Shown here in pieces: positions 2,695 through 12,083 of a DNA stretch of 12,454 nt. The DNA lies in the UHGV virus genome UHGV-0041831, one strand, 5' to 3'. The notes beneath the pieces are model-generated. The model was given only the letters and a program-made list of their open reading frames with translations, did no database searches and was not told the DNA's origin. Numbering within the stretch: the first letter of the stretch is position 1; every line of letters begins with the position of its first letter. This DNA comes from a virus. Position numbers and translations under genes: made by a program.

Positions 2695-3162
2695 TTATTT
2701 CAGGCACTGAGTACGGATATATTCCTGCGCCCCTTCCAGTTGCTTCTGCATCGTCATCAGCCGCTCTCTGAGGGTGAAATAATCCCGTGTAACGGTGTCT
2801 GCCAGTTGGGGGCCGGTTGCATTATCCACGCGGGCGGTGCCGGTGGCTTCACGCACGGGACCTGGACAGGTGGCGTTGATACGCAGGCGCTTACGACCAG
2901 CGGCAACGTCAGCGCGAAGAGTTTCATTTTCAGCTTTCGCATCAGCTAACTCCTTCGTGTATTTTGCATCGAGCGCAGCAACATCACGCTGACGCATCTG
3001 CATGTCAGTAATTGCCGCGTTCGCCAGCTTCAGTTCTCTGACATTTTTGTCGCGCTGGGCTTTGTAGGTAATGGCGTTATCACGGTAATGATTCAGCCCC
3101 AGACTAAGCGCACCACAGGCCACCAGCAGGGCAATGATGACCACGCACAGTACGCGGTTCAT
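2695..3162 (-). CDS. Rz: Rz i-spanin (inner-membrane spanin subunit)
   Basis: 155-aa [82 protein letters not shown]..., closely similar to lambda Rz as recalled (N-terminal TM, coiled-coil body). Confidence 0.9.
2757..2942 (-). CDS. Rz1: Rz1 o-spanin lipoprotein, embedded in the +1 frame inside Rz
   Basis: 61-aa [64 protein letters not shown]. It has a lipobox (LVVSAC) and a proline-rich mature region, like lambda Rz1, and is fully nested in Rz. Confidence 0.85.
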
Positions 3163-3163
3163 T

Positions 3164-3262
3164 TCACCACCAGCGTATCTGACCGATGAAATAACCGGAG
3201 GCCATAATCACAAACACCAGCCAGATAAGAATGAACTTCCAGGTGGATAATTTTTCAGCCAT
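3164..3262 (-). CDS. Hypothetical 32-aa single-TM membrane peptide between endolysin and Rz (not in the ORF track)
   Basis: Manual translation gives [38 protein letters not shown] lies 8 nt upstream of the ATG. Its TGA stop (3164-3166) is 1 nt from the Rz ATG (3160-3162), suggesting translational coupling. An in-frame GTG at 3335-3337 could extend it to 57 aa. Confidence 0.3.
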
Positions 3263-3337
3263 CACTCGAATCTCCCGAATCAGTTTGCTAAAATCAAACA
3301 CACTTTCTCCTTTGACTTTTCCGGAGTCAGGAAACAC

Positions 3338-3371
3338 AAAACCCCGCTTGGTGCCAACAAACGGGGTTTTT
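3338..3371. terminator. Bidirectional hairpin with flanking A/T tracts between endolysin and Rz
   Basis: AAAACCCCGCTTGGTGCCAACAAACGGGGTTTTT: stem ACCCCG/CGGGGT with an inner TTGG/CCAA helix, T-run after it on plus and T-run after it on minus (TTTTGTGTTT). Confidence 0.45.
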
Positions 3372-3460
3372 ACTTTTATTCACTTACGTTTCGCCAGTTC
3401 GCAGGATTTCGTGTTATCCGCCCGCGTGGCCATACCTTATTTTTCAGCAAAATATTCTGC

Positions 3461-3994
3461 TTATCTGTCGATTCCCCAGCACGCCAGCGCGCTCTCCTGG
3501 TCACGACGGGATACCTGACCATAACAGTTATTTGAGCGGACACGGCAGTCTCTGCCACCGTCCTTAATCCACCAGCGAATCGCCTCACACGCTCCCCTGC
3601 GATCACCTGCATTAATTCGTTTATAAAACGTCGACGGGAAACACTTACCGGGACCAATGTTGTACGGACAGAATGACGCGATCCCCGCTTTCTGGGGTTC
3701 ACTCAATGGCACTCTGATGTTTTTCTCCACCCATGCCAGCGCCTTATCACGCTCAATGGCGTTAACCCGGTCGCATTTTTCCTTCGACAACTTCATGCCC
3801 GGAACGACAGGTTTGCCATCCACCAGGATGGCACCGCGGCAGATGGTCCAGATACCCGCGCCATCACGGTATGCCGTGGTGTGGTTACCTTCCTTTTCAT
3901 CCAGAAACTGGTCGAGAATGTCAGGCGCAGGCGCACCAGCGGCAATCAGCGCCAGAACGGCAGCCGACAGGCCGTATCTGATTTTTGCGTTCAT
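3461..3994 (-). CDS. Phage endolysin, T4-lysozyme-like muramidase with N-terminal signal-anchor (SAR-type)
   Basis: 177-aa ORF MNAKIRYGLSAAVLALIAAGAPA... followed by E-x8-D-x5-T (EGNHTTAYRDGAGIWT), the catalytic spacing of T4-type lysozymes. The N-terminal hydrophobic, Ala/Gly-rich segment has no Cys, consistent with a SAR domain. A pinholin partner lies upstream. Confidence 0.88.
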   Translation of the reverse strand: MNAKIRYGLSAAVLALIAAGAPAPDILDQFLDEKEGNHTTAYRDGAGIWTICRGAILVDGKPVVPGMKLSKEKCDRVNAIERDKALAWVEKNIRVPLSEPQKAGIASFCPYNIGPGKCFPSTFYKRINAGDRRGACEAIRWWIKDGGRDCRVRSNNCYGQVSRRDQESALACWGIDR

Positions 3995-4099
3995 GGATAT
4001 TTATCAGGATTTATCGGTTTCTGAGCCCTAGATATGTTTATCAGTTCCAGCCTGTTGCCTCAGGCTGCTAACAGGTCAATACAATCATGAGGATTATTT

Positions 4100-4372
4100 A
4101 TGGACAATAACACCATTTCTCTACAGGAGTTGCTCGACAGCATTTCCAGGCTTCGGGAAGACGTGAATACCCTTACCGTCGCCTTCTCATATCTGGCATT
4201 CTCAATTCCAAGGGAACAGATGCAATCAACGCTGGCATCAATCCAGTTTGAATCATGCAATCCCAAATGGTCTCAGGAACAACAAGACTCTTTCAGGCGG
4301 CTTGCTGTATTACTGGATGAAAAATATGCTGGTAAAATTACCATTTCGGCGGACTCTTCAGAGAACCCGTAA
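4100..4372 (+). CDS. Hypothetical acidic 90-aa protein encoded antisense to the lysis operon
   Basis: ATG at 4100 with a GAGGA Shine-Dalgarno 6 nt upstream (4089-4093) and a candidate -10 TACAAT at 4080-4085. Sequence MDNNTISLQELLDSISRLREDVNTLTVAFSYLAFSIPREQ... has no family I recognise. Its 3' end overlaps the YdfR-like gene by 35 nt in convergent orientation. Confidence 0.5.
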   Translation: MDNNTISLQELLDSISRLREDVNTLTVAFSYLAFSIPREQMQSTLASIQFESCNPKWSQEQQDSFRRLAVLLDEKYAGKITISADSSENP

Positions 4373-4682
4373 TTATTCCCGGTAGTTTTCCTCTGTAGGT
4401 TATCAACACATCCTGCGCCTCTAAAATTACGGGGCGCTTTTCCGGCGACTGCTCATCCCCTTCACATAACCCGGCAGCAACATCCAGGAAGACCTGTCTG
4501 ATGCTCCTTCTGGCTGCTGACTCATAAAACTCCAGCGCTGCACCTTCAACACGGTCCAGCGAGATGTCCAGGTCAAAAATTTCACCGTCAAAGCGTTTTT
4601 TGTCCCGTAACGCTAAAGTTACCGTAACTTTATTCTCAAAATTGCGGATCCCTTTCACAATCAGTTCATAGTTTTGAGTCAT
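4338..4682 (-). CDS. YdfR-like (DUF1327-like) protein between holin and endolysin
   Basis: 114-aa ORF MTQNYELIVKGIRNFENKVTVTLALRDKKRFDGEIFDLDISLDRVEGAALEFYESAARRSIRQVFLDVA..., resembling E. coli Qin prophage YdfR as recalled, which also sits between holin and lysozyme. GGGGAGAG Shine-Dalgarno; start 4 nt after the holin stop. Confidence 0.65.
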   Translation of the reverse strand: MTQNYELIVKGIRNFENKVTVTLALRDKKRFDGEIFDLDISLDRVEGAALEFYESAARRSIRQVFLDVAAGLCEGDEQSPEKRPVILEAQDVLITYRGKLPGIITGSLKSPPKW

Positions 4683-4686
4683 TGAA

Positions 4687-4902
4687 TTACTCTCCCCGTG
4701 CAGCCTTACGACGGTCCTCTCTGATTTTGAAATACAGGTTAGTCAGATATGTCAGCAGCCCAAACAGCAGACTCCCCAGCACGCCTATTGCCGCCCACTG
4801 AGACGGGGAAACCCTGTCCAGCAACTGCAGGAACCAGTAGCCCGTTCCCACCGCTGACGTGGTGTATGACACACCTGTTGTGATTTTTTCCATCTGGTAC
4901 AT
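4687..4902 (-). CDS. Class II holin, phage 21 S-like pinholin with dual-start motif (71-aa and 68-aa products)
   Basis: From Met27 of the track ORF: [71 protein letters not shown], near-collinear with S21 as recalled. Two TM segments, charged C-terminus, Met1-x-x-Met4 dual start, GGGAGA Shine-Dalgarno 6 nt upstream. The N-terminal extension to 4980 in the ORF track is probably not translated. Confidence 0.85.
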
Positions 4903-5052
4903 ACCCCGTCTCCCGTTATCCGGAAGCTGACAACAATAAAAAAAGCCACCAGTTAAGTACTGATGGCTCTGATAACTCATGCAGGCATCTCAGACGACCC
5001 ACTGACACTACCGGTGAGTTTAACGATACCTTCCATTTGGCTGGCTCACTTT

Positions 5053-6906
5053 TTATGATGATGCCGGTGCATTTATCTCCAGCACCAGACTTTCTATCTC
5101 AACGCCATACGCTGCATTTTTGGTAATATCCGTCAGCGTCAGCGCATTCAGCCCCAGTGTCAGACTGTCTTTTATGACCTGGAATGCCGGGCCAGCCACT
5201 CCATTCAGTTTCGGAGTAACCGTGGCACTGCCGGCGGTGAACACCAGCTCCAGCGTCTGCCAGTCGTTACTGTAATTCCCGAACTCGCCCAACTTTGTGT
5301 TTCCTGCTTTCTTGTGATGCATCAGATTCAGTTTGCCGTCTGTGGTCTGGGTGAAGAACGACATCAGGAACGGGTTACCAGTCCCGGTCATCGCCACGAC
5401 GTCAGGTAACGCTACATCGGTATACAGATAAATTCCCAGACCGAACTGGTTGTTGGTCAGTGCGCCTGACAGTCGAAACTTACAGCTCAGTCTGCCACCC
5501 CGTGTCAGCAGGGAGACTGCGTCATCCACCGGGCGCGTCAGGGACCAGGCTTTATTGCTCTGCTTGGTGATCTTAAATACACCATCTGACAACTGAATTC
5601 CGCCATTCTTAATGCTCCAGCCCTGCGCAGCAGCGTCTCCGGCTGTCGGCAACAGGGAGATTGTGCGTATGGATGCATCTTCAGACGGCCCCGATGGCGT
5701 GTCGCCGCCGGGCGAGGGTTTGATTTCCGGTGCCTTACCACTAATGAAGGCTAAGGTGCGACCGGCTACGTTCAGAATAGCAGTTGCCATACGATCGGGA
5801 ATAATGCCACGACGCGCCCATGAGCTGAAATGCGTCGGGCGATTTGATGATACCCAGTTTTTGTTCGTTCGGGATGCCGAACCGTAATAACCAGACCCGG
5901 CAATATCAGGATCTTCTGACGGGTTGTTTGTCGGTGTATTAACTCCGCTACCATCGGTCATAAAGGGAACAAAATAAATCTGCTGGGATTCTTTACCTTT
6001 ATATGCACCATATACCACTTCATATTGCGTACCGTGTTCTTGTTTCCACGCGTATGTCGTGTCGCCACAAATCCAGGGGACTGATGCCGGACTTCCACCG
6101 TGACACTGCGCCGCCAGCCCGGCAAGGTCAGCACGGAACTGCTGTACCATTGCAAGAAATGCTGCTGGCTGCTGGGCGTAACTGGCATTCGTCATATCGA
6201 ATTCCCCCTGCATCCAGCATATCGCCAGCAAAACGTTTTTCGGGTTTTTCTGCAATGCTGCCTTCGTGCGGAAAAGCAGATCCTGATATAACGGCTTACC
6301 CACTCCCCAGCGAGCCGAATCCTGACTGGCTCCCGTGGACTCGCTGAATGTCCCCTCCGTGCCCTGGGTGAATGCCGAACCACCACGACAGCATGGTACC
6401 AGCAGGATCCCCGCATTATTAGGGATATACGGAAGCAGTTTTTTGGCAATATGTAAGCCCTGTCCGACACAGCCGTACTGCCCTTTGCTCAGGTCAGCCC
6501 GGGGATGGTTAATCGTACTCATATCCTGAACATCATGCAGACAATGGTCAGCAGGAATGATGTCGTTAAATACGCATACTTCACCACCGGGAGTCACTGT
6601 GTTACGACGGGCCAGTTGCTTAATGCGCGGATGGGGCGCATCGTATGAATCCGGAAGCGGAAGCCCTTCACCGTAAGCCATGGCATTGGATTGCCCGGCC
6701 AGTACGATGACGTAGTACCACTCCGGCTCAGTTGCACCACTGACGACCACATCACCTTCTGCTGCAATCGCCTGCATCAGGGTATAAGGGGTTATGGCCA
6801 CCGGACTACCAAACGGCTGCCAGCCCTCCTTCAGTTTTTGTGTCAGTCGTTTCGCAAGGTCTGACGGCGATGCCGCCCTGACCACGTCATAGTGTTTAAA
6901 TGCCAT
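5053..6906 (-). CDS. Prophage NanS-p-like sialate O-acetylesterase (SGNH/DUF303 esterase plus C-terminal domain)
   Basis: 617-aa ORF with a strong GGGAGG Shine-Dalgarno. N-terminal block VIVLAGQSNAMAYGEG carries the GQSN esterase motif. Size, domain layout and position upstream of the holin match the NanS-p/YjhS-like genes that follow stx in Stx phages, as recalled. Confidence 0.85.
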   Translation of the reverse strand: MAFKHYDVVRAASPSDLAKRLTQKLKEGWQPFGSPVAITPYTLMQAIAAEGDVVVSGATEPEWYYVIVLAGQSNAMAYGEGLPLPDSYDAPHPRIKQLARRNTVTPGGEVCVFNDIIPADHCLHDVQDMSTINHPRADLSKGQYGCVGQGLHIAKKLLPYIPNNAGILLVPCCRGGSAFTQGTEGTFSESTGASQDSARWGVGKPLYQDLLFRTKAALQKNPKNVLLAICWMQGEFDMTNASYAQQPAAFLAMVQQFRADLAGLAAQCHGGSPASVPWICGDTTYAWKQEHGTQYEVVYGAYKGKESQQIYFVPFMTDGSGVNTPTNNPSEDPDIAGSGYYGSASRTNKNWVSSNRPTHFSSWARRGIIPDRMATAILNVAGRTLAFISGKAPEIKPSPGGDTPSGPSEDASIRTISLLPTAGDAAAQGWSIKNGGIQLSDGVFKITKQSNKAWSLTRPVDDAVSLLTRGGRLSCKFRLSGALTNNQFGLGIYLYTDVALPDVVAMTGTGNPFLMSFFTQTTDGKLNLMHHKKAGNTKLGEFGNYSNDWQTLELVFTAGSATVTPKLNGVAGPAFQVIKDSLTLGLNALTLTDITKNAAYGVEIESLVLEINAPASS

Positions 6907-7059
6907 GAATCCTCCCGGGCGGGATAATGTTGTGAGTCAGATAAGGAGCAGGCTGAAGTCCGGAAGTTACAGGACAATGGCAGAAGGGAGACTACAGCCC
7001 GCAATTCGAAAAAGACCGCGCAGTTGCGCAGAGTGATTACTATGGGGTATTATTCGCCA

Positions 7060-7128
7060 GCTGAAATATTACTTCACGTTTTATTGTTTATTCCTTGCCG
7101 CCCGCGTCTCCCAGCGCGGGCTTTTTTT
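7060..7128 (+). ncRNA. Candidate plus-strand short transcript (about 70 nt) upstream of NanS-p
   Basis: Sigma70-like promoter (-35 TTGCGC 7024-7029, 18-bp spacer, -10 TATTAT 7048-7053) followed by a strong plus-orientation intrinsic terminator (stem GCCCGCG/CGCGGGC at 7100-7121, T7 at 7122-7128). No plus-strand CDS explains this terminator. Confidence 0.25.
7100..7128 (+). terminator. Rho-independent terminator, plus orientation
   Basis: GCCCGCG-TCTCCCAG-CGCGGGC followed by TTTTTTT. Confidence 0.6.
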
Positions 7129-7149
7129 GTCCATAAGAAAGCCCCTCCG

Positions 7150-7206
7150 NNNNNNNNNNNNNNNNNNNNNNNNNNNNNNNNNNNNNNNNNNNNNNNNNNN
7201 NNNNNN
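7150..7206. other. Assembly gap (57 N) flanked by identical 28-mers
   Basis: 7122-7149 and 7207-7234 are both TTTTTTTGTCCATAAGAAAGCCCCTCCG. This looks like an unmerged contig-end overlap rather than real sequence. Confidence 0.8.
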
Positions 7207-7217
7207 TTTTTTTGTCC

Positions 7218-7393
7218 ATAAGAAAGCCCCTCCGGAGAGGGGCTAAAGCCGCGTATCTGTATCATCATGCACATGGTGCCGGGTGCCTCCCGGTGAGTTC
7301 AGCCCGGTGCCACTAAACCCGCGTCATTCTCGTTTTGATAATCAGAGATTATACCGTCACCAGTCGCCCCTCCGCTCAGGGGGATTCACCATG
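7218..7393 (-). ncRNA. Tandem unit A: candidate structured small RNA
   Basis: Minus-strand order: promoter-like TTGACA (7432-7437) and TTGTTAAAAAAA, then a 5' block CATGGTGAATCCCCCTGAGCGGAGGGGC, a variable core, a 3' block TCACCGGGAGGCACCCGGCACCATG, then the terminator. 5' CATGGTG can pair with 3' CACCATG; internal hairpins CCCCT/AGGGG and CCGGG/CCCGG. No conserved ORF (frames differ between units A and B). Confidence 0.35.
7225..7244 (-). terminator. Intrinsic terminator of tandem unit A (minus orientation)
   Basis: Perfect 8-bp stem AGCCCCTC/GAGGGGCT with a 4-nt loop, followed on the minus strand by TTCTTATGG. Confidence 0.5.
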
Positions 7394-7495
7394 CGAAATT
7401 TTTTTAACAAATGCCCAGTCTGACAGGCAACTGTCAACTTACTGAATTGTGAGCAACATAGCATTTAACGGGGAACCTGTTTTCTGCAGTAAAAA

Positions 7496-7517
7496 GGCCC
7501 ACCGGAGCGGATGGGCC
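7496..7517 (-). terminator. Intrinsic terminator between tandem units (minus orientation)
   Basis: Minus strand AGGCCCA-TCCGCTCCGG-TGGGCCT followed by TTTTTAC. Confidence 0.45.
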
Positions 7518-7703
7518 TGGAAGGATAGCGGTCATGTGATGCCGGTTTCCCGGTAACTCAGCACCGGTATCTGAGTCAACGTTTTCTCTACTGGGTCATT
7601 TCCGATACGCCCTGCCTGCTGACAGGCTTTCATCACATCTGAAAATATAGCACCCTGACTGATACTGTAGTACCTAAGGTTCCAGAAACTGTGATGTATC
7701 CGG

Positions 7704-7861
7704 CACAGAAAAGCCCCTCCGGAGAGGGGCTGGAGAGTGGCGCTATGTGCCATTGCATGGTGCCGGGTGCCTCCCGGTGAATTCAGTACCAGCACCTGAA
7801 TCCGCGATTATCCCATATACCTACTCGCTGATTGCCCCTCCGCACAGGGGGATTCACCATG
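7704..7861 (-). ncRNA. Tandem unit B: candidate structured small RNA (diverged paralogue of unit A)
   Basis: Same architecture as unit A: TTGACT (7900-7905) and TTGTTAAAAG, then 5' block CATGGTGAATCCCCCTGTGCGGAGGGGC (7834-7861), variable core, 3' block TCACCGGGAGGCACCCGGCACCATG (7756-7780), then terminator. The conserved blocks are near-identical to unit A while the core differs. Confidence 0.35.
7712..7731 (-). terminator. Intrinsic terminator of tandem unit B (minus orientation)
   Basis: Same 8-bp stem AGCCCCTC/GAGGGGCT as unit A, followed on the minus strand by TTTTCTGTG. Confidence 0.55.
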
Positions 7862-7934
7862 CCAGTTTCTTTTAACAAACTCCCCGCAAACCAGACAACA
7901 GTCAACCGCCTGAATTGTGAGACATTTAAAAAAA

Positions 7935-7950
7935 GCCCGCAAAAGCGAGC
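7935..7950 (-). terminator. Intrinsic terminator immediately after the tRNA cluster (minus orientation)
   Basis: Minus strand GCTCGC-TTTT-GCGGGC (6-bp stem including one G-U pair) followed by TTTTTTT. Confidence 0.55.
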
Positions 7951-7965
7951 CAGGGAAAATAAGTG

Positions 7966-8042
7966 TGGCGCGTTGTACTGGATTCGAACCAGTGACCGAT
8001 TGCTTAGAAGGCAATTGCTCTGTCCGGCTGAGCTAACAACGC
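7966..8042 (-). tRNA. argO: tRNA-Arg (anticodon UCU), phage-encoded
   Basis: Manual cloverleaf: acceptor GCGTTGT/ACAACGC, D-arm GCTC...GAGC, anticodon stem ATTGC/GCAAT with loop CTTCTAA (anticodon TCT), T-arm ACTGG-TTCGAAT-CCAGT, discriminator G, encoded CCA. Symbol given by analogy with the Stx-phage tRNA cluster. Confidence 0.8.
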
Positions 8043-8055
8043 AGGATACAGATAA

Positions 8056-8132
8056 TGGACCGCCTTCGGGGACCCGAACTCCGCGCAACCAGCTTCGAAA
8101 GCTGGCGCTCTTTCCTGATGAGCTAATGGCGG
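8056..8132 (-). tRNA. argN: tRNA-Arg-like (anticodon UCG) with non-canonical features; possibly degenerate
   Basis: Manual fold: D-arm GCTC-ATCAGGAAA-GAGC, perfect anticodon stem CCAGC/GCTGG with loop TTTCGAA (anticodon TCG), encoded CCA. But the acceptor stem starts with C and has one mismatch, the T-stem has an A-C mismatch, and the T-loop is TTCGGGT (G at the usual A58 position). Confidence 0.55.
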
Positions 8133-8139
8133 TATGTGA

Positions 8140-8215
8140 TGGTGGCCCTTGCTGGATTTGAACCAGCGACCTGGCGATTATGAGTCGCTCGCTCTCACCA
8201 CTGAGCTAAAGGGCC
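8140..8215 (-). tRNA. ileZ: tRNA with CAU anticodon (Ile2/lysidine type or Met)
   Basis: Manual cloverleaf: acceptor GGCCCTT/AAGGGCC, D-arm GCTC-AGTGGTGA-GAGC, anticodon loop CTCATAA (CAT), T-arm GCTGG-TTCAAAT-CCAGC, discriminator A, encoded CCA. Symbol by analogy with the Stx-phage ileZ-argN-argO cluster. Confidence 0.75.
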
Positions 8216-8264
8216 GGGAGCAGAATAATAATGGTGCGTAATTAATTCTGCAATCTCATCCGTT

Positions 8265-9314
8265 TCAAACGATTAAATCCTGAACTTCCCTGACTGTCTG
8301 CTCAAAACGTCCGGTCTCCAGTTCAACGCCAATCGCACGACGCCCGAGCGCCAGTGCCACTTTTACCGTTGAACCTGAGCCCATAAAAAAATCTGCAACC
8401 AGGTCACCCGGACGACTGCTTGCGCTGATTATCTGCTGCAGCATTTCTGCCGGTTTTTCGCACGGATGTTTCCCTGGATAGAACTGCACCGGTTTATGTG
8501 TCCACACATCCGTGTACGGCACCTGCGCCGTCACACCAAAATACCGCCGCAGATGCTTATATTCACTCTGCAGCTCCACATACTGCCGGTTCAGTGACGT
8601 ATACGTATCCACCAGCTGGTGGTGGGGCTTTTCCAGTTCACCGCGCTGATGTTTCTCTTCTGCCACCCGGGCAAACAGCGACTGTAATTTCAGATAATCG
8701 CTTTCGTTCGGTAGCTGCCACTGACTGGCACTGAACCAGTGCGACACCATGTTTTTCTTTCCTGTGGCATCTGCAATCTGTTTTGCCGTTATCCCCAAGG
8801 CAGCGCGCGCATCACGAAAGTAAGAAATCAGCGGGGCCATCACATGCTGTTTCAGTGCACTGCCCTTCGCCGCATACCCGGCATCTTTCGGACGATACGG
8901 CCCCTGATAATGTTCCGCGAACAGAATGCGCTCTGTGGCGGGGAAATACGCCCGCAGGCTTTCCTTGTTGCATCCGTTCCAGCGTCCGGACGGCTTCGCC
9001 CAGATAATATGGTTCAGCACACTGAAGCGTTCACGCATCATGATTTCGATATCAGATGCCAGGCGATGACCACAGAACAGGTAAAGACTTCCGACAGGTT
9101 TCAGCACCCGCCAGAACTGCGCCAGACACTGGTCCAGCCACTTCAGGTAATCATCGTCGCCCTTCCACTGGTTATCCCAGCCCTCAGGCTTCACTTTAAA
9201 GTACGGCGGGTCCGTGACTATCAGGTCAACAGAATTTTCGGGTAACGACCGGATAAATTCCAGGCAGTCGGCGTTGATTAACTCACAACTGGATATTTTT
9301 ACAGTATTAAGCAT
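8265..9314 (-). CDS. DNA amino-methyltransferase, beta-class (N6-adenine or N4-cytosine), apparently orphan
   Basis: 349-aa ORF. Catalytic motif IV DPPY (IVTDPPYF) is near the N-terminus and AdoMet motif I F-x-G-x-G (FFMGSGST) near the C-terminus, the beta-class order. No restriction endonuclease candidate is adjacent. Confidence 0.85.
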   Translation of the reverse strand: MLNTVKISSCELINADCLEFIRSLPENSVDLIVTDPPYFKVKPEGWDNQWKGDDDYLKWLDQCLAQFWRVLKPVGSLYLFCGHRLASDIEIMMRERFSVLNHIIWAKPSGRWNGCNKESLRAYFPATERILFAEHYQGPYRPKDAGYAAKGSALKQHVMAPLISYFRDARAALGITAKQIADATGKKNMVSHWFSASQWQLPNESDYLKLQSLFARVAEEKHQRGELEKPHHQLVDTYTSLNRQYVELQSEYKHLRRYFGVTAQVPYTDVWTHKPVQFYPGKHPCEKPAEMLQQIISASSRPGDLVADFFMGSGSTVKVALALGRRAIGVELETGRFEQTVREVQDLIV

Positions 9315-9346
9315 GGATCATTAAGCCTGTCTCTGATAGGCTCATT

Positions 9347-9365
9347 CTGCTTTTGCGCAAAGCAG
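9347..9365. promoter_or_regulatory. Palindrome CTGCTTT-TGCGC-AAAGCAG about 33 nt upstream of the methyltransferase start
   Basis: Perfect 7-bp inverted repeat with a 5-nt spacer and no flanking U-tract. Candidate operator or 5'-UTR hairpin. Confidence 0.3.
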
Positions 9366-9460
9366 TGGGCCTGAGGTTTGCTTGTGAACCCAACGCATGA
9401 GCAGATGGCTGGTAAGTGCCCCTAACACCCACCAGCCGCCCATTTACCACAAATAAAAAA

Positions 9461-9478
9461 GCCTTCACTGCGGAAGGC
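9461..9478 (-). terminator. Intrinsic terminator overlapping the stop codon of the small wHTH gene (minus orientation)
   Basis: Stem GCCTTC/GAAGGC with 6-nt loop, followed on the minus strand by TTTTTTATTT (plus 9451-9460). The TGA stop at 9465-9467 lies inside the hairpin. Confidence 0.55.
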
Positions 9479-9662
9479 GTCTGTAACAACCGAACTGATA
9501 GTCTGCCAGACCCGCCATAACCAGCTGAGTCAGTATTAACTGGCAGCGTTCGCGTGAAAGGTAAGTATTCTGCGCTATCTCCCCGACTGTCGCCGGTTCG
9601 GTAACGCTTAATTCATTAAACACCACTCTGGCGGTTTCTGTCATATCCTGCTGTTTTAGCAT
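9465..9662 (-). CDS. Small winged-helix-like DNA-binding protein (65 aa), hypothetical
   Basis: Within track ORF 9465..9749, the internal ATG at 9660-9662 has an AGGA Shine-Dalgarno 7 nt upstream. Product MLKQQDMTETARVVFNELSVTEPATVGEIAQNTYLSRERCQLILTQLVMAGLADYQFGCYRRLPQ has a DeoR/MarR-like recognition-helix pattern. The longer track start lacks a ribosome-binding site. Confidence 0.45.
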   Translation of the reverse strand: MLKQQDMTETARVVFNELSVTEPATVGEIAQNTYLSRERCQLILTQLVMAGLADYQFGCYRRLPQ

Positions 9663-9806
9663 GTCTTTTTCCTTTTTCCGGTTAACGTGACATACCAATA
9701 ACTCTTGTCGAAAAAGCCAGCAAGCTGAAAGACCCGTATTCGCAACCACCAGCGTGTTTACTGTACTGACGCGATTTTGGGCATAAAAAAAAAACCGCCC
9801 GACGGC

Positions 9807-9868
9807 NNNNNNNNNNNNNNNNNNNNNNNNNNNNNNNNNNNNNNNNNNNNNNNNNNNNNNNNNNNNNN
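9807..9868. other. Assembly gap (62 N) flanked by near-identical poly-A/CCGCC-GACGGC sequence
   Basis: Left flank ...GCATAAAAAAAAAACCGCCCGACGGC and right flank ...GGGGAAAAAAAAAAAAACCGCCTGACGGC are near-duplicates. Probably an unmerged contig overlap in a homopolymer-rich region. Confidence 0.75.
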
Positions 9869-9985
9869 GCGTTTTGGGGAAAAAAAAAAAAACCGCCTGA
9901 CGGCAGTTTTTTTTCTTACTTTGCCATCGCGTACAAAATCGGCAAAATATCAGATTTATACGAAACGTACGCTATTTAATTGACT
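9869..9985 (-). promoter_or_regulatory. Candidate late promoter plus short-transcript terminator module downstream of the Q-position gene
   Basis: Minus strand: -35-like GTCAAT (9979-9984), 18-bp spacer, -10 TATAAA (9955-9960). About 50 nt downstream is a small GC hairpin (9893-9904) flanked by A13 and T8 runs, so it is U-rich in both orientations. Resembles the lambdoid pR'/tR' arrangement; the module abuts the N gap. Confidence 0.35.
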
Positions 9986-10665
9986 TTTGCAATATCTCGT
10001 CGTGAAAAAGTCGCTTTTTGTTGCGCTCTTATTTTCACGGTGCAAATCACAGATTCTCTATCGAGACTCTTAAAAATATCGCACATCTCACGCCAGTAGT
10101 TCGCATAATTATGGCTCCAGTTATCAGGCTTAACTCCACACAGTCTGGCAAGCTCCTGTCTCTGGTAGACCTCACACCCGGTAATCCATCCTCTGACATC
10201 CTGTGCCGCCAGCCAGATCAACTTCTTCACGCGCTCCTGCGTTTTCCCTGCAATTTTTCTGGTGCCGTACCGGGTTTTAAATTCATTCCACACCCACTGC
10301 GTTATCGCGATCTGATATTCCCAACAAATACTCCCGCTGTAACACCACAACAACCAGGCTTTATGATGTTCTTCAAGAGACAGAACAGCCCGCCGCCACG
10401 ATGATGTCGAAAACTCAACCGGACTGACGAGAGGAATTGACACCCCCTTCGCCAGCGATTGCTTTCCCGGGATTGGTGGATTATCCCGCGTTATCATTTT
10501 TCCAGTCACTTCATCGCGGTACCGGATTTTTTTACGCCTGTAACGCCCTGTATCAAACATGGCATTCTCCTGCCAGGCCTCAAGCTGCCCTTTTGTTGAT
10601 CCACTCAAATCGGCGGTGGCAATCATGAGTTGCTCACGAACAAACTGTAAATACTGGTTATTCAT
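9976..10665 (-). CDS. Hypothetical 229-aa protein at the late-antiterminator (Q) position; function assigned by synteny only
   Basis: ATG overlaps the RusA stop (ATGA at 10662-10665), so it is co-transcribed with nin-region genes, and it is followed by the promoter/terminator module. It has no lambda-Q-type CxxC zinc motif, so if it is Q it belongs to a different Q family. Confidence 0.4.
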   Translation of the reverse strand: MNNQYLQFVREQLMIATADLSGSTKGQLEAWQENAMFDTGRYRRKKIRYRDEVTGKMITRDNPPIPGKQSLAKGVSIPLVSPVEFSTSSWRRAVLSLEEHHKAWLLWCYSGSICWEYQIAITQWVWNEFKTRYGTRKIAGKTQERVKKLIWLAAQDVRGWITGCEVYQRQELARLCGVKPDNWSHNYANYWREMCDIFKSLDRESVICTVKIRAQQKATFSRRDIAKVN

Positions 10666-11027
10666 GCGTACTCCAGTTCTGTGATTTTTATCCCCAACCG
10701 CCCACCAGGAACAAGCTGACCGCGCACAATATTAATTTCATCAAACTGCTCGTCGTCTATGAGCAGCCCCGCATGCGTCAGTACATCCAGTGGTGCCTTC
10801 AGGATATTGTCCAGGTCACGACGGCGCTTATCCGGTGGCTCTGCAATAATTTCTATTGCCGGCCTTCCGGACAGGTTTAATTTCAGTTGCTGCTGGCGAA
10901 CAATAAGCGCCACATCACGGCGATAACGCTCACCGACTTTTGATACAAAATATGTGCTGCCACGACGTCGCCAGTAAGTGTTCACCGTTGGCGGGTAAGG
11001 CAAAACAAATTCTATGCGTTCAGTCAT
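10662..11027 (-). CDS. rusA: RusA-family Holliday junction resolvase
   Basis: 121-aa ORF containing PDKRRRDLDNILKAPLDVLTHAGLLIDDEQ and C-terminal GGRLGIKITELE, matching the RusA catalytic-core signature (RRRDLDN) as recalled. Confidence 0.85.
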   Translation of the reverse strand: MTERIEFVLPYPPTVNTYWRRRGSTYFVSKVGERYRRDVALIVRQQQLKLNLSGRPAIEIIAEPPDKRRRDLDNILKAPLDVLTHAGLLIDDEQFDEINIVRGQLVPGGRLGIKITELEYA

Positions 11028-12083
11028 TTATGCTTTCCACTTCAGAACACCCGAATTTCTCGCGTGCATTAAAAAACGAATCAGCAACAACAGCTGGCTG
11101 CCGTGTTTTTCTTCAAAATCTTTTACCCCGGCGTGTAGTTCGCTATGGCATTTACGGCACAGCGGAATAACAAACAAATCATCAGCCTTTGTTCCCATCC
11201 CTCCCAGTCCATGACCAATGATGTGATGCGGATCATCTGCCTGATTGCCACACGTCATGCATTTCTGCGTTTTTACCCAACGCGTGTATACAGGCATCTC
11301 TTCCCGTTGTGATTTCTGGCGCTGGAGATACTGAGCCGGTGACTCCGGATCAACGGCAATGCTGACCACCGTCTTTTCCTGTGGCGGGTTTTGCTGGTGG
11401 GCGTGAGGCAGCGGCGCAAGATTTTTTGTGCGCTGCTTCAGTATGCTGGTGGCGGTCTGCTCTCCCGGTACGATGTCGCTTTCACGGTACATTGAGCGGA
11501 TTTTTTCCGCACGCAACCCCAGCGAACGACGTAATACCGCTTCCGGTAGCGCGTCCGCCACCTGATTGCGGACCGCCCACCAGGATAATTCAGCCAGCGA
11601 TAACTCCCGCTCCTGCGTGCCATTCATTGCATGGCGTATGACGTCAATCATCCATGCAGACAGGTTTTGGTGAGCAAGTTGCCCGAGTGATTCGGAGGTC
11701 TGGTCGCGCAGCTGGTTGTCGCAGTGCCAGCACAACACCATTGCGCCGGTACCATAACGGTGAATGACGGTTTCACTGTGGTGATAATCGCCGTGTGGCC
11801 ACTGGCAGGATTTAACATGGCGCAGTAACCAGTCAGACAATGCGCCAGCGCCACCAGCAGCACGAATCACTCGTTCGTCGCTGAAAAATGGCAGTAATGA
11901 TTTATCCTCCGCCAGCGGCTGGCGAACGGCAGGAACGACCCCGGACGGCAGATTACGCATGCTTTTCGGTTCCGGCTCCACCAGTACCCGGGTATTGTGG
12001 AATACCGGCATGGATTCACGGCCCGGCTTAACGATCACCAGCCCGAGTTCCGGTACCAGAACAGGTCGAAGTAATACCCGCAC
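11028..12083 (-). CDS. DUF968-like (YdfU-like) phage protein with His/Cys-rich C-terminal motif
   Basis: 351-aa ORF with GTG start at 12081-12083 preceded by a GGAGGT Shine-Dalgarno. The C-terminus CMTCGNQADDPHHIIGHGLGG...CRKCHSELH resembles an HNH/zinc-ribbon-like motif. Its position just upstream of rusA and the Q-position gene matches YdfU-type genes, as recalled. Confidence 0.6.
   Translation of the reverse strand: MRVLLRPVLVPELGLVIVKPGRESMPVFHNTRVLVEPEPKSMRNLPSGVVPAVRQPLAEDKSLLPFFSDERVIRAAGGAGALSDWLLRHVKSCQWPHGDYHHSETVIHRYGTGAMVLCWHCDNQLRDQTSESLGQLAHQNLSAWMIDVIRHAMNGTQERELSLAELSWWAVRNQVADALPEAVLRRSLGLRAEKIRSMYRESDIVPGEQTATSILKQRTKNLAPLPHAHQQNPPQEKTVVSIAVDPESPAQYLQRQKSQREEMPVYTRWVKTQKCMTCGNQADDPHHIIGHGLGGMGTKADDLFVIPLCRKCHSELHAGVKDFEEKHGSQLLLLIRFLMHARNSGVLKWKA

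Follow-up and report, generated by a model that had tools for sequence, protein, structure and literature searches.

A covarying leader RNA and two terminators before an M.EcoGII-type methyltransferase gene: a possible silencing arrangement in the late operon of a Qin-like prophage

The window studied here is the whole 12,454-nucleotide stretch of UHGV virus genome UHGV-0041831, and our subject is its orphan methyltransferase gene together with the leader RNA, the small gene and the terminators that precede it. The chromosome of E. coli strain B1172 contains a match of 99.8% identity, which lies in a Qin-like lambdoid prophage. All the relevant genes of the window are on the minus strand and run from the DUF968/HNH gene through RusA, the antitermination gene Q, an open reading frame (ORF) of 65 amino acids (aa) and the methylase to the tRNAs and the lysis genes (Table 1). 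We propose that this region forms the part of a late operon nearest to the promoter, in a Qin-like lambdoid E. coli prophage, that a mobile module within it unites a winged-helix gene and the terminator t2 with an M.EcoGII-type methyltransferase gene and its structured leader RNA, and that a Q-controlled late promoter, two terminators and a leader with two folds keep the toxic methylase silent. For this explanation as a whole we estimate a probability of about 0.6. The methylase and the type of operon are already known; the leader RNA appears to be the new part.

Table 1. Coordinates of the features of the window.
Feature	Position	Strand	Detail or basis
DUF968/HNH lambdoid gene	11028-12083	-	only nuclease-like ORF in the window
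RusA	10662-11027	-	
Antitermination protein Q gene, 229 aa	9976..10665	-	Pfam PF06323 Phage_antiter_Q, E=1.4e-83
pR'-like late promoter block (putative)	9955..9992	-	-35 TTGCAA 9992..9987, 17-nt spacer, -10 TACGTT 9969..9964
Terminator t1, first tR'-like terminator after Q	9880..9904	-	terminator scan
Small-ORF 5' leader, where the mobile module has its upstream end	9663..9790	-	start of similarity in other phages
Gene of the 65-aa winged-helix protein	9465..9662	-	RefSeq start, homologues, selection, predicted fold
Terminator t2, hairpin 9478..9461 and U-tract	9455..9478	-	GCCTTC-CGCAGT-GAAGGC + T6
Structured 5' leader RNA of the methylase	9315..9446	-	conservation, covariance model, covariation
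Leader, S1 AUGGGC	9443..9438	-	
Leader, P1	9437..9426 with 9418..9407	-	
Leader, region 2/P2 5' arm	9403..9396	-	
Leader, P2 3' arm/region 3	9386..9379	-	
Leader, S2 GGCCCA	9371..9366	-	
Leader, P3	9365..9347	-	
Leader, S3 UGAGCCUA	9344..9337	-	
Leader, region 4	GCUU 9326..9323 and UGAUCC 9320..9315	-	
Methyltransferase gene, 349 aa	8265..9314	-	PF01555 N6_N4_Mtase, E=2.6e-44
tRNA cluster: CAU-anticodon tRNA, Arg-TCG, Arg-TCT	7966..8215	-	ARAGORN, Rfam tRNA, RefSeq
DUF1737/SASA esterase	5053-6906	-	
Holin, lysozyme, Rz	~2695-4980	-	

A previous reading of the window from its letters, here called the sequence-only reading, had described an orphan beta-class methyltransferase with no cognate nuclease nearby, and its ORF was confirmed in position and length. 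The motifs follow the beta-class order, with TDPPYF at residues 34-39 (DPPY at 35-38) and then FxGxG as FFMGSG at about 309-314, and the PF01555 match spans residues 29-340. This order, the Pfam match and the gene content of both the window and the B1172 locus bear out an orphan prophage enzyme of that class. The absence of a nuclease partner holds as well: no linked restriction endonuclease was found in the window or in any related locus examined, and the lone DUF968/HNH gene is set apart from the methylase by RusA and Q.

The protein is identical to M.EcoGII at 329 of 350 aligned positions (~94%, both being 349 aa long), a count made against a reference machine-read from the PDF supplement of PMC11551740 that contains a few obvious reading errors. 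With M.EcoGII and M.EcoGI it shares the motif order, the location in a lambdoid prophage and the lack of a partner nuclease; it differs from M.EcoGII in ~20 residues, several of which fall in the central target-recognition region. Murray et al. 2018 (PMC5778455) showed that M.EcoGII, which a prophage of E. coli O104:H4 C227-11 encodes, methylates adenine whatever the sequence context. The same work reports that the enzyme is not expressed in the lysogen and slows growth upon expression, and it names phage 1720a-02, which is the best phage match of the window, as the carrier of a very similar enzyme. The homologues p25 of Serratia OS31 and p56 of Aeromonas ARM81ld, 58-65% identical, are likewise non-specific, and phiP27 and Morganella IME1369_02 were named as sources of further homologues (PMC7556043). 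By this similarity, the enzyme of the window is predicted to be an orphan of the M.EcoGI/M.EcoGII type that methylates adenine in any sequence context, and a methylome search for its target would be expected to return no sequence motif, because M.EcoGII and two distant homologues are non-specific. The annotation "site-specific DNA methylase" is misleading for this family, which is present in many E. coli prophages and to which M.EcoGII, a widely used tool enzyme, belongs. As to the previous suggestion of an anti-restriction or epigenetic methylase, the comparison points to an orphan adenine methyltransferase of a prophage, for which an anti-restriction role is plausible.

The segment in front of the methylase was compared by aligning 11 phages from the stop of Q to the methylase start. 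The alignment shows stronger conservation in the 150-nt spacer than in either of the genes beside it. All 11 loci, from E. coli to Morganella and Providencia, have the same block AAATGGGCGGCTGGTGG.TGTT, save for one base in Flotzy. A pattern scan of viral contigs yielded 49 distinct full-length versions of the leader. From these a covariance model was built, which gives the window (9312-9450) a score of 147 bits. The related-locus search with the methylase alignment gave only near-identical loci, and the diversity came from tblastn of phage records. In 18 of the 20 distinct phage lineages examined the model matches directly 5' of the methylase ATG, with scores of 65 bits in Hafnia yong2, 54 in Serratia OS31, 48 in VHML, 44 in phiKO2, 38 in PY54, 37 in N15 and 36 in PhiR46_1. 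Val-yong3 shows a weaker match (28 bits) ~130 nt upstream of the annotated methylase start, and phiO18P gave no match to the model. The leader is complete in Flotzy and Serratia OS31, both of which lack the small gene. Judged by this distribution, the leader travels with the methylase, and a covarying secondary structure at a fixed position in the 5' untranslated region of one gene family, as is found here, would mark it as a cis-regulatory leader. It appears to be undescribed: Rfam 15 returned no match to it at the gathering threshold or at E<=10 (9250-9800), and in the literature covered (PMC open access and bioRxiv) no description of it was found, the regulation of the methylase being mentioned only as silence in lysogens.

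Three hairpins of the leader, P1, P2 and P3, are backed by compensatory change. P1 is fully re-coded in N15 (CGCGGGA/UCCCGCG), phiKO2 and VHML. One pair of P2 is U:A in 26 sequences, C:G in 15 and A:U in 11, and another is U:A in 50 as against C:G in 7. The stem of P3 reads GCUUU/AAAGC, GCUG/CAGC, GCUC/GAGC or CGCGAU/AUCGC according to the lineage, with compensated changes in N15, phiKO2 and VHML. G·U pairs are common and are found on the sense strand without exception, which identifies the mRNA leader of the methylase as the functional molecule.

Two global folds were obtained. Fold A, preferred by RNAalifold on the E. coli-like set, extends P1 by AUGGGC:GCUCAU, pairs GGCCCAC with GUGAGCC around P3, and pairs region 3 (AAGC, GGUCA) with region 4 (GCUU, UGAUC), the bases directly in front of the AUG. 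Under fold A, 97% of the cells are paired and double changes are seen in 18 pairs, values that were reached in 0 of 500 shuffles. Fold B is a three-way junction of P0, P1 and P2 in which the start-proximal bases are free. The two folds share strands and are for that reason mutually exclusive; their energies lie 0.3-2 kcal/mol apart in two related loci (L008 and L010) and in the window, and in Hafnia, phiKO2 and N15 the lowest energy belongs to fold B. Considering that the methylase start has no Shine-Dalgarno sequence and that the start-proximal bases are paired in fold A and free in fold B, we propose a translational switch. UGAUC is complementary to GAUCA, which is presumably found at the 3' end of 16S rRNA.

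With 1 nt between it and the methylase ATG, a Dam site (GATC, 9316-9319, minus strand) is found unchanged in 49 of 49 E. coli-like leaders; in fold A it falls within the 3' strand of helix H3 (UGAUC with GGUCA). A third topology, a four-way junction closed by AUGGGC:GCCUA that RNAalifold proposed for a diverse subset, was set aside, being 5-10 kcal/mol less stable in most lineages; Serratia is the exception, where it beats fold B, and it cannot be traced by covariation. Also rejected was a TGTGAAAAT-like promoter at the leader's 5' edge, since its transcripts would lose the conserved 5' pairing segment.

The first bases of the leader could instead be read as coding. The AUG at 9443..9441 would start a short upstream ORF (MGGWWVL...) whose translation would unwind P1/H1 and open the methylase start, and this ORF may be fed by ribosomes that terminate at the small gene. 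An AUG or GUG stands at this position in 58 of 58 distinct sequences, the seventh codon is only UUA or UUG, which are synonymous, within the E. coli-like group, and in Morganella and Providencia the stop of the small ORF lies 1 nt from this AUG. The peptide, however, is not conserved: Serratia reads GUG GGC GGC GGA AGG GUG AGG UAA, phiKO2 encodes M-G-A-A-A-stop, and the lengths range from 5 to 47 codons. No Shine-Dalgarno sequence precedes the AUG, pairing with U in helix H1 accounts equally well for an A or G here, and N15-type phages have a promoter and a terminator between the winged helix-turn-helix (wHTH) gene and the leader. Coupling to a leader peptide is thus improbable, and a leader-peptide reading of the invariant ATGGGCGGCTGGTGG was largely rejected, the peptide being unconserved outside the E. 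coli-like clade. The 5' arm itself reads ATG GGC GGC TGG TGG GTG TT(A/G), or MGGWWVL, and its frame stops after 7, 17, 35 or 47 codons depending on the lineage. A genome-wide scan with the degenerate pattern ATGGGNGGNTGGTGGNTG, aimed at synonymous variation of this putative ORF, was too loose and returned mostly chance matches in GC-rich genomes, the real leaders being only those of L149, L205, L227 and L235.

P1 and H1 together form a helix of ~20 bp with one internal loop, similar to phage RNase III substrates like those of the lambda N leader and the T7 R sites. On another reading the leader would serve in RNA processing or stability and have no part in translation, P1/H1 being for instance cut by RNase III to part the short leader transcripts from the late mRNA. 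Such a site would leave unexplained the conserved 3' two-thirds of the leader, the covarying P2 and the pairing of the start-proximal UGAUC, and we regard it as decidedly improbable.

The hairpin P3 corresponds to the palindrome from which the sequence-only reading had derived a controller circuit. The perfect 7-nt inverted repeat CTGCTTT/AAAGCAG (9347-9353/9359-9365, 5-nt spacer) was found as described, just upstream of the methylase, ending 32 nt before the ATG at 9314. By itself such a repeat is unremarkable, since ~3.7 perfect 7-bp repeats with loops of 3-8 nt are expected per window from block-shuffled sequence; of the 17 actually present, most are terminators. In the RNA models the palindrome forms P3 in both fold A and fold B, with an energy of -8.4 kcal/mol. 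All 28 sequence variants extracted have a hairpin at this position, and two N15-type sequences outside the extraction pattern show it by eye. Only 6 of the 28 keep a perfect Watson-Crick repeat of at least 7 bp, and 3 variants (11 sequences) contain a U·G pair that is possible only on the sense RNA.

The small gene that would supply the controller is real and under purifying selection. Its ORF extends over 9465-9749 from a GTG, and the 65-aa version from the ATG at 9662..9660 agrees with the RefSeq start. All nucleotide differences from phiP27 (10/10) and from a Shiga toxin (Stx) phage of Stx2k type (12/12) are at third codon positions, with zero amino-acid changes, and 334 homologues of the 65-aa protein were found. 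The best of five AlphaFold models has a predicted local distance difference test score of 91 (the other four, 56-59) and shows three helices followed by a beta-hairpin (H-H-H-beta-beta). Foldseek aligned it to IclR-type wHTH DNA-binding domains with a template-modelling score of ~0.8, further matches being the winged-helix dimerisation domains of O-methyltransferases and SelB WH. This best model supports the winged-helix fold that had been suggested from the letters. Pfam gave only matches below the cut-off (TrmB at 18 bits against 25.6, MarR_2 and DprA_WH), and the label "TrmB family regulator" is weak because it rests on such a match; in NCBIfam neither the small protein nor Q has a family. 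The small protein occurs together with the methylase in 118 of the 129 cases in which both flanks were assessable. In the phages of Morganella and Providencia the small protein is only 48% and the methylase only 62% identical. N15 carries a weakly similar wHTH gene (gp51; 28% over 58 aa) before its late promoter, and phiKO2 a similar one.

A protein with a predicted fold of DNA-binding type that is co-inherited with the methylase, and whose weakly similar counterparts are encoded ahead of the methylase in N15 and phiKO2, would be suited to bind 9347-9365 as an operator and to switch methylase transcription in the manner of C-proteins. The resemblance to the circuits of C.PvuII, C.AhdI and C.Esp1396I lies in the small DNA-binding-type protein just upstream of a modification gene and in the inverted repeat nearby. 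C-proteins, however, have an Xre-type helix-turn-helix, recognise paired C-boxes in front of their own gene and set the timing of a nuclease, whereas here the protein is a predicted winged helix and not of Xre/HTH_3 type, there is no restriction gene, and the repeat lies 3' of the small gene, ~100 nt past its terminator, within the structured mRNA leader and with no promoter found near it. The repeat varies as DNA and is kept as an RNA stem: in phiP27, whose protein is 100% identical, it is imperfect (CTGCTTT/AAAGCGG). Leader and methylase also persist without the small gene in Flotzy and Serratia OS31. We therefore find the controller-operator arrangement unsupported and this use of the palindrome very improbable; the previous remark that the protein does not look like a canonical C-protein agrees with our matches.

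It may also be asked whether the leader is a true sensor, either a riboswitch (for S-adenosylmethionine or S-adenosylhomocysteine, for example) or the binding site of a protein, such as the methylase acting as autorepressor or the winged-helix protein. Its layout is aptamer-like, with the variable and covarying P1, P2 and P3 radiating from invariant joining segments (AUGGGCG, CAUY, AACC..GGCCCAC and GAGCCUAUCA) whose conservation reaches from E. coli as far as Vibrio phage VHML, and its two conformers are nearly isoenergetic. Winged-helix domains can bind RNA, SelB WH being one of the fold matches, and M.EcoGII has been reported to bind and methylate RNA besides DNA (PMC5778455). On the other side, the invariant segments are equally explicable by the need to satisfy two alternative pairings, no ligand can be inferred from the sequence, and there is no similarity to any Rfam riboswitch, so that a sensor seems rather unlikely. 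That the leader represents a new class of sensing RNA, gating translation of the toxic methylase from Vibrio to Enterobacterales phages and only in the right lytic window, is a tentative possibility; if the sensor reading were true, this would be a new phage regulatory RNA that might help to control the expression of a toxic enzyme.

Transcription is the other level at which the methylase could be held back. At the end of Q lies the pR'-like block, which continues into the conserved initially transcribed GATATTTTGCC. After most PF06323-type Q genes, among 26 distinct loci with Q C-terminal identity down to 26-31%, the same block is found (TTGCAA-17-TAnnTT/CATATT, and ~12 nt on GATAT(G/T)TTG(C/T)C), followed by an intrinsic terminator. 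The block probably serves this Q family as its pR'/Q-utilisation region; the family's member in the B1172 locus is labelled in RefSeq as "bacteriophage antitermination protein Q". The block of the window has 7/12 consensus matches, below the threshold of our sigma-70 consensus scan, and promoter function is here inferred. The same scan found no sigma-70-like promoter on the minus strand between Q and the methylase. A promoter-like block (TTGCAA-17 nt-(C/G/T)A(T/C)(A/G)TT) adjoins or overlaps the end of Q in L004, L005, L008, L024, L039, L075, L118, L127, L227 and L334.

The terminator scan of 7000-10800 gave 16 terminator-like sites against 3.7 expected. Intact t1, as present in B1172, has -14.7 kcal/mol (z=-3.0). 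For t2, the 41-nt segment that contains the hairpin folds with -9.6 kcal/mol, and the TGA stop of the small gene (9467..9465) falls in its loop; the gene thus ends inside its own terminator, as had been noticed before. In Klebsiella-type and mEp460-type loci the t2 hairpin is kept with compensatory changes (GCCUCC/GGGGGC, CUGCCA/UGGCGG), again with the stop in the loop. Similarity to phiP27, SfV and others begins at ~9768-9790, just after t1, despite differing Q genes; the module starts after t1 and the methylase therefore stands behind two terminators, t1 and t2. The segment 9634-9768 (minus strand) is also present without the small ORF in phages HannyBb and PhiR63_1, and the 5' leader of the small ORF contains the cross-genus motif CTTGCTG-N10-CAGAGTTA(T/C).

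The order Q, small ORF, methylase and holin/endolysin recurs in SfV, mEp460, Citrobacter phiNP and the Morganella and Hafnia phages. Flotzy likewise has the methylase between Q and the lysis cassette, with the small gene absent, and in Serratia OS31 three other ORFs separate Q from the methylase, which is followed by holin and lysozyme. The fetched stretch of the Providencia record has Q, small ORF and methylase, and lysis genes are not annotated in it. For the linear-plasmid phages N15 and phiKO2 the depositors' annotation places a late promoter and a terminator directly 5' of the leader, and a terminator and the holin/lysozyme genes directly 3' of the methylase. In the P2-like phiO18P the methylase lies between holin and muramidase. 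The phiP27 locus (L002) carries, at 5679-6908 and between its Q-like gene and the small-ORF/methylase module, a gene for a 409-aa GIY-YIG nuclease that looks like an insertion of homing-endonuclease type and is not in the window.

The pR' promoter of lambdoid phages is constitutive and its transcript is terminated at tR' in lysogeny (PMC7547250). Taking into account this property, the position after Q, the two terminators and the lack of a promoter found between them and the methylase, Q-dependent late transcription is the most economical reading of how the methylase is expressed, and the tRNA cluster would be a downstream part of the same transcript. A constitutive late promoter beside Q would produce a short RNA that ends at t1, and read-through past t1 would be stopped again at t2, where the small gene ends. 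To pass both terminators and reach the methylase, tRNA and lysis genes, RNA polymerase would need the modification by Q that takes place in lytic growth. At the second level, the leader of ~135 nt without a Shine-Dalgarno sequence would adopt one of two folds: in fold A, AAGC..GGUCA pairs with GCUU..UGAUC immediately 5' of the AUG and initiation would be hindered, while in fold B the three-way junction of P0, P1 and P2 occupies those partners and the start region would be free. We infer this translational control, and with it some event that flips the switch. The methylase would be locked at two levels because the enzyme is harmful to the host, and its likely role would be to pre-methylate progeny phage DNA late in infection, allowing escape from restriction in the next host. 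The M.EcoGII work left the silencing mechanism open; the Q and terminator context and the leader RNA are what is added here, and the double terminators with the two-fold leader offer a concrete, testable answer.

Several points weigh against this explanation, besides the machine-read reference used for M.EcoGII. Helix H3 is well kept only in the E. coli-like clade and is out of register in Hafnia, phiKO2 and N15, so that occlusion of the start site may not be universal. The segments AUGGGC, GGCCCAC and GAGCCUA never vary, and because of this invariance P0, H1, H5 and a possible S1:S3 closing stem are indistinguishable by covariation. The covariation alignment was fitted to fold A, and its sequences are related, with few independent events. 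In the window t1 is interrupted by an N-run artefact, and promoter function, Q dependence and terminator efficiency are deduced from sequence and synteny.

By comparison with the pR'-tR' regions of lambda, 82, 21 and the Stx phages (StxS, PMC7547250), the arrangement has in common Q, a promoter of constitutive type, a short terminated transcript and the late and lysis genes, as well as accessory cargo (tRNAs, toxin or esterase) between Q and lysis. It differs in having two predicted terminators in series with a protein gene between them, and the long gene that comes first in the late region encodes a methylase and has a structured leader. From Rfam and the open-access literature, the double-terminator arrangement appears undescribed. 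With the ermC leader and translational ON riboswitches the methylase leader shares mutually exclusive pairings, one of them over the initiation region and both kept in evolution; it lacks, in contrast, a conserved leader peptide, a known ligand and an Rfam family, and its occluding helix is clear only in the E. coli-like clade.

Rearranged forms of the module were also seen. In phiSTEC1575-Stx2k (L006, 2581-3652), and also in L030 and L069, the small gene and the leader stem P1 are kept and a gene for a 237-aa AraC-type helix-turn-helix protein replaces the methylase; the recombination breakpoint lies inside the leader, which is cut after P1. The locus L235 (3655-4010) holds a degraded module with small ORF and leader (71 bits) and no methylase ORF of at least 40 aa after them, and its P1 carries a compensated change (GGAUG/CAUCC). 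Part of the 2.5-kb Q-to-methylase query is matched by 2940 of 5426 complete E. coli genomes.

The N-run at 9807-9868 is flanked by a duplicate of the post-Q terminator (GCCGTC(A/G)GGCGG-T-run), the second copy being at 9794-9806, and the N-run at 7150-7206 is likewise flanked by a direct duplication, of TTTTTTTGTCCATAAGAAAGCCCCTCCG. Both look like artefacts of assembly or masking and not biology; for the first this follows from B1172, which has a single terminator copy and in the alignment is 98 nt shorter.

The late region has the layout typical of Stx-converting phages, but without stx, and the nearest phage records to the window are Stx2 phages, 1720a-02 and phiP27. The tRNA at 8140-8215 (minus strand) is tRNA-Met (anticodon CAT) by ARAGORN and tRNA-Ile in RefSeq for the identical B1172 gene; the latter label would fit an ileZ-like tRNA that reads Ile codons after lysidine modification. 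Between the tRNA cluster and the esterase gene, at what is the stx site in Stx phages, lie two full-length Rfam STnc100 matches (7214-7423 and 7701-7891, minus strand; 165 and 136 bits), each of which terminates in the hairpin AGCCCCTCTCCGGAGGGGCT.

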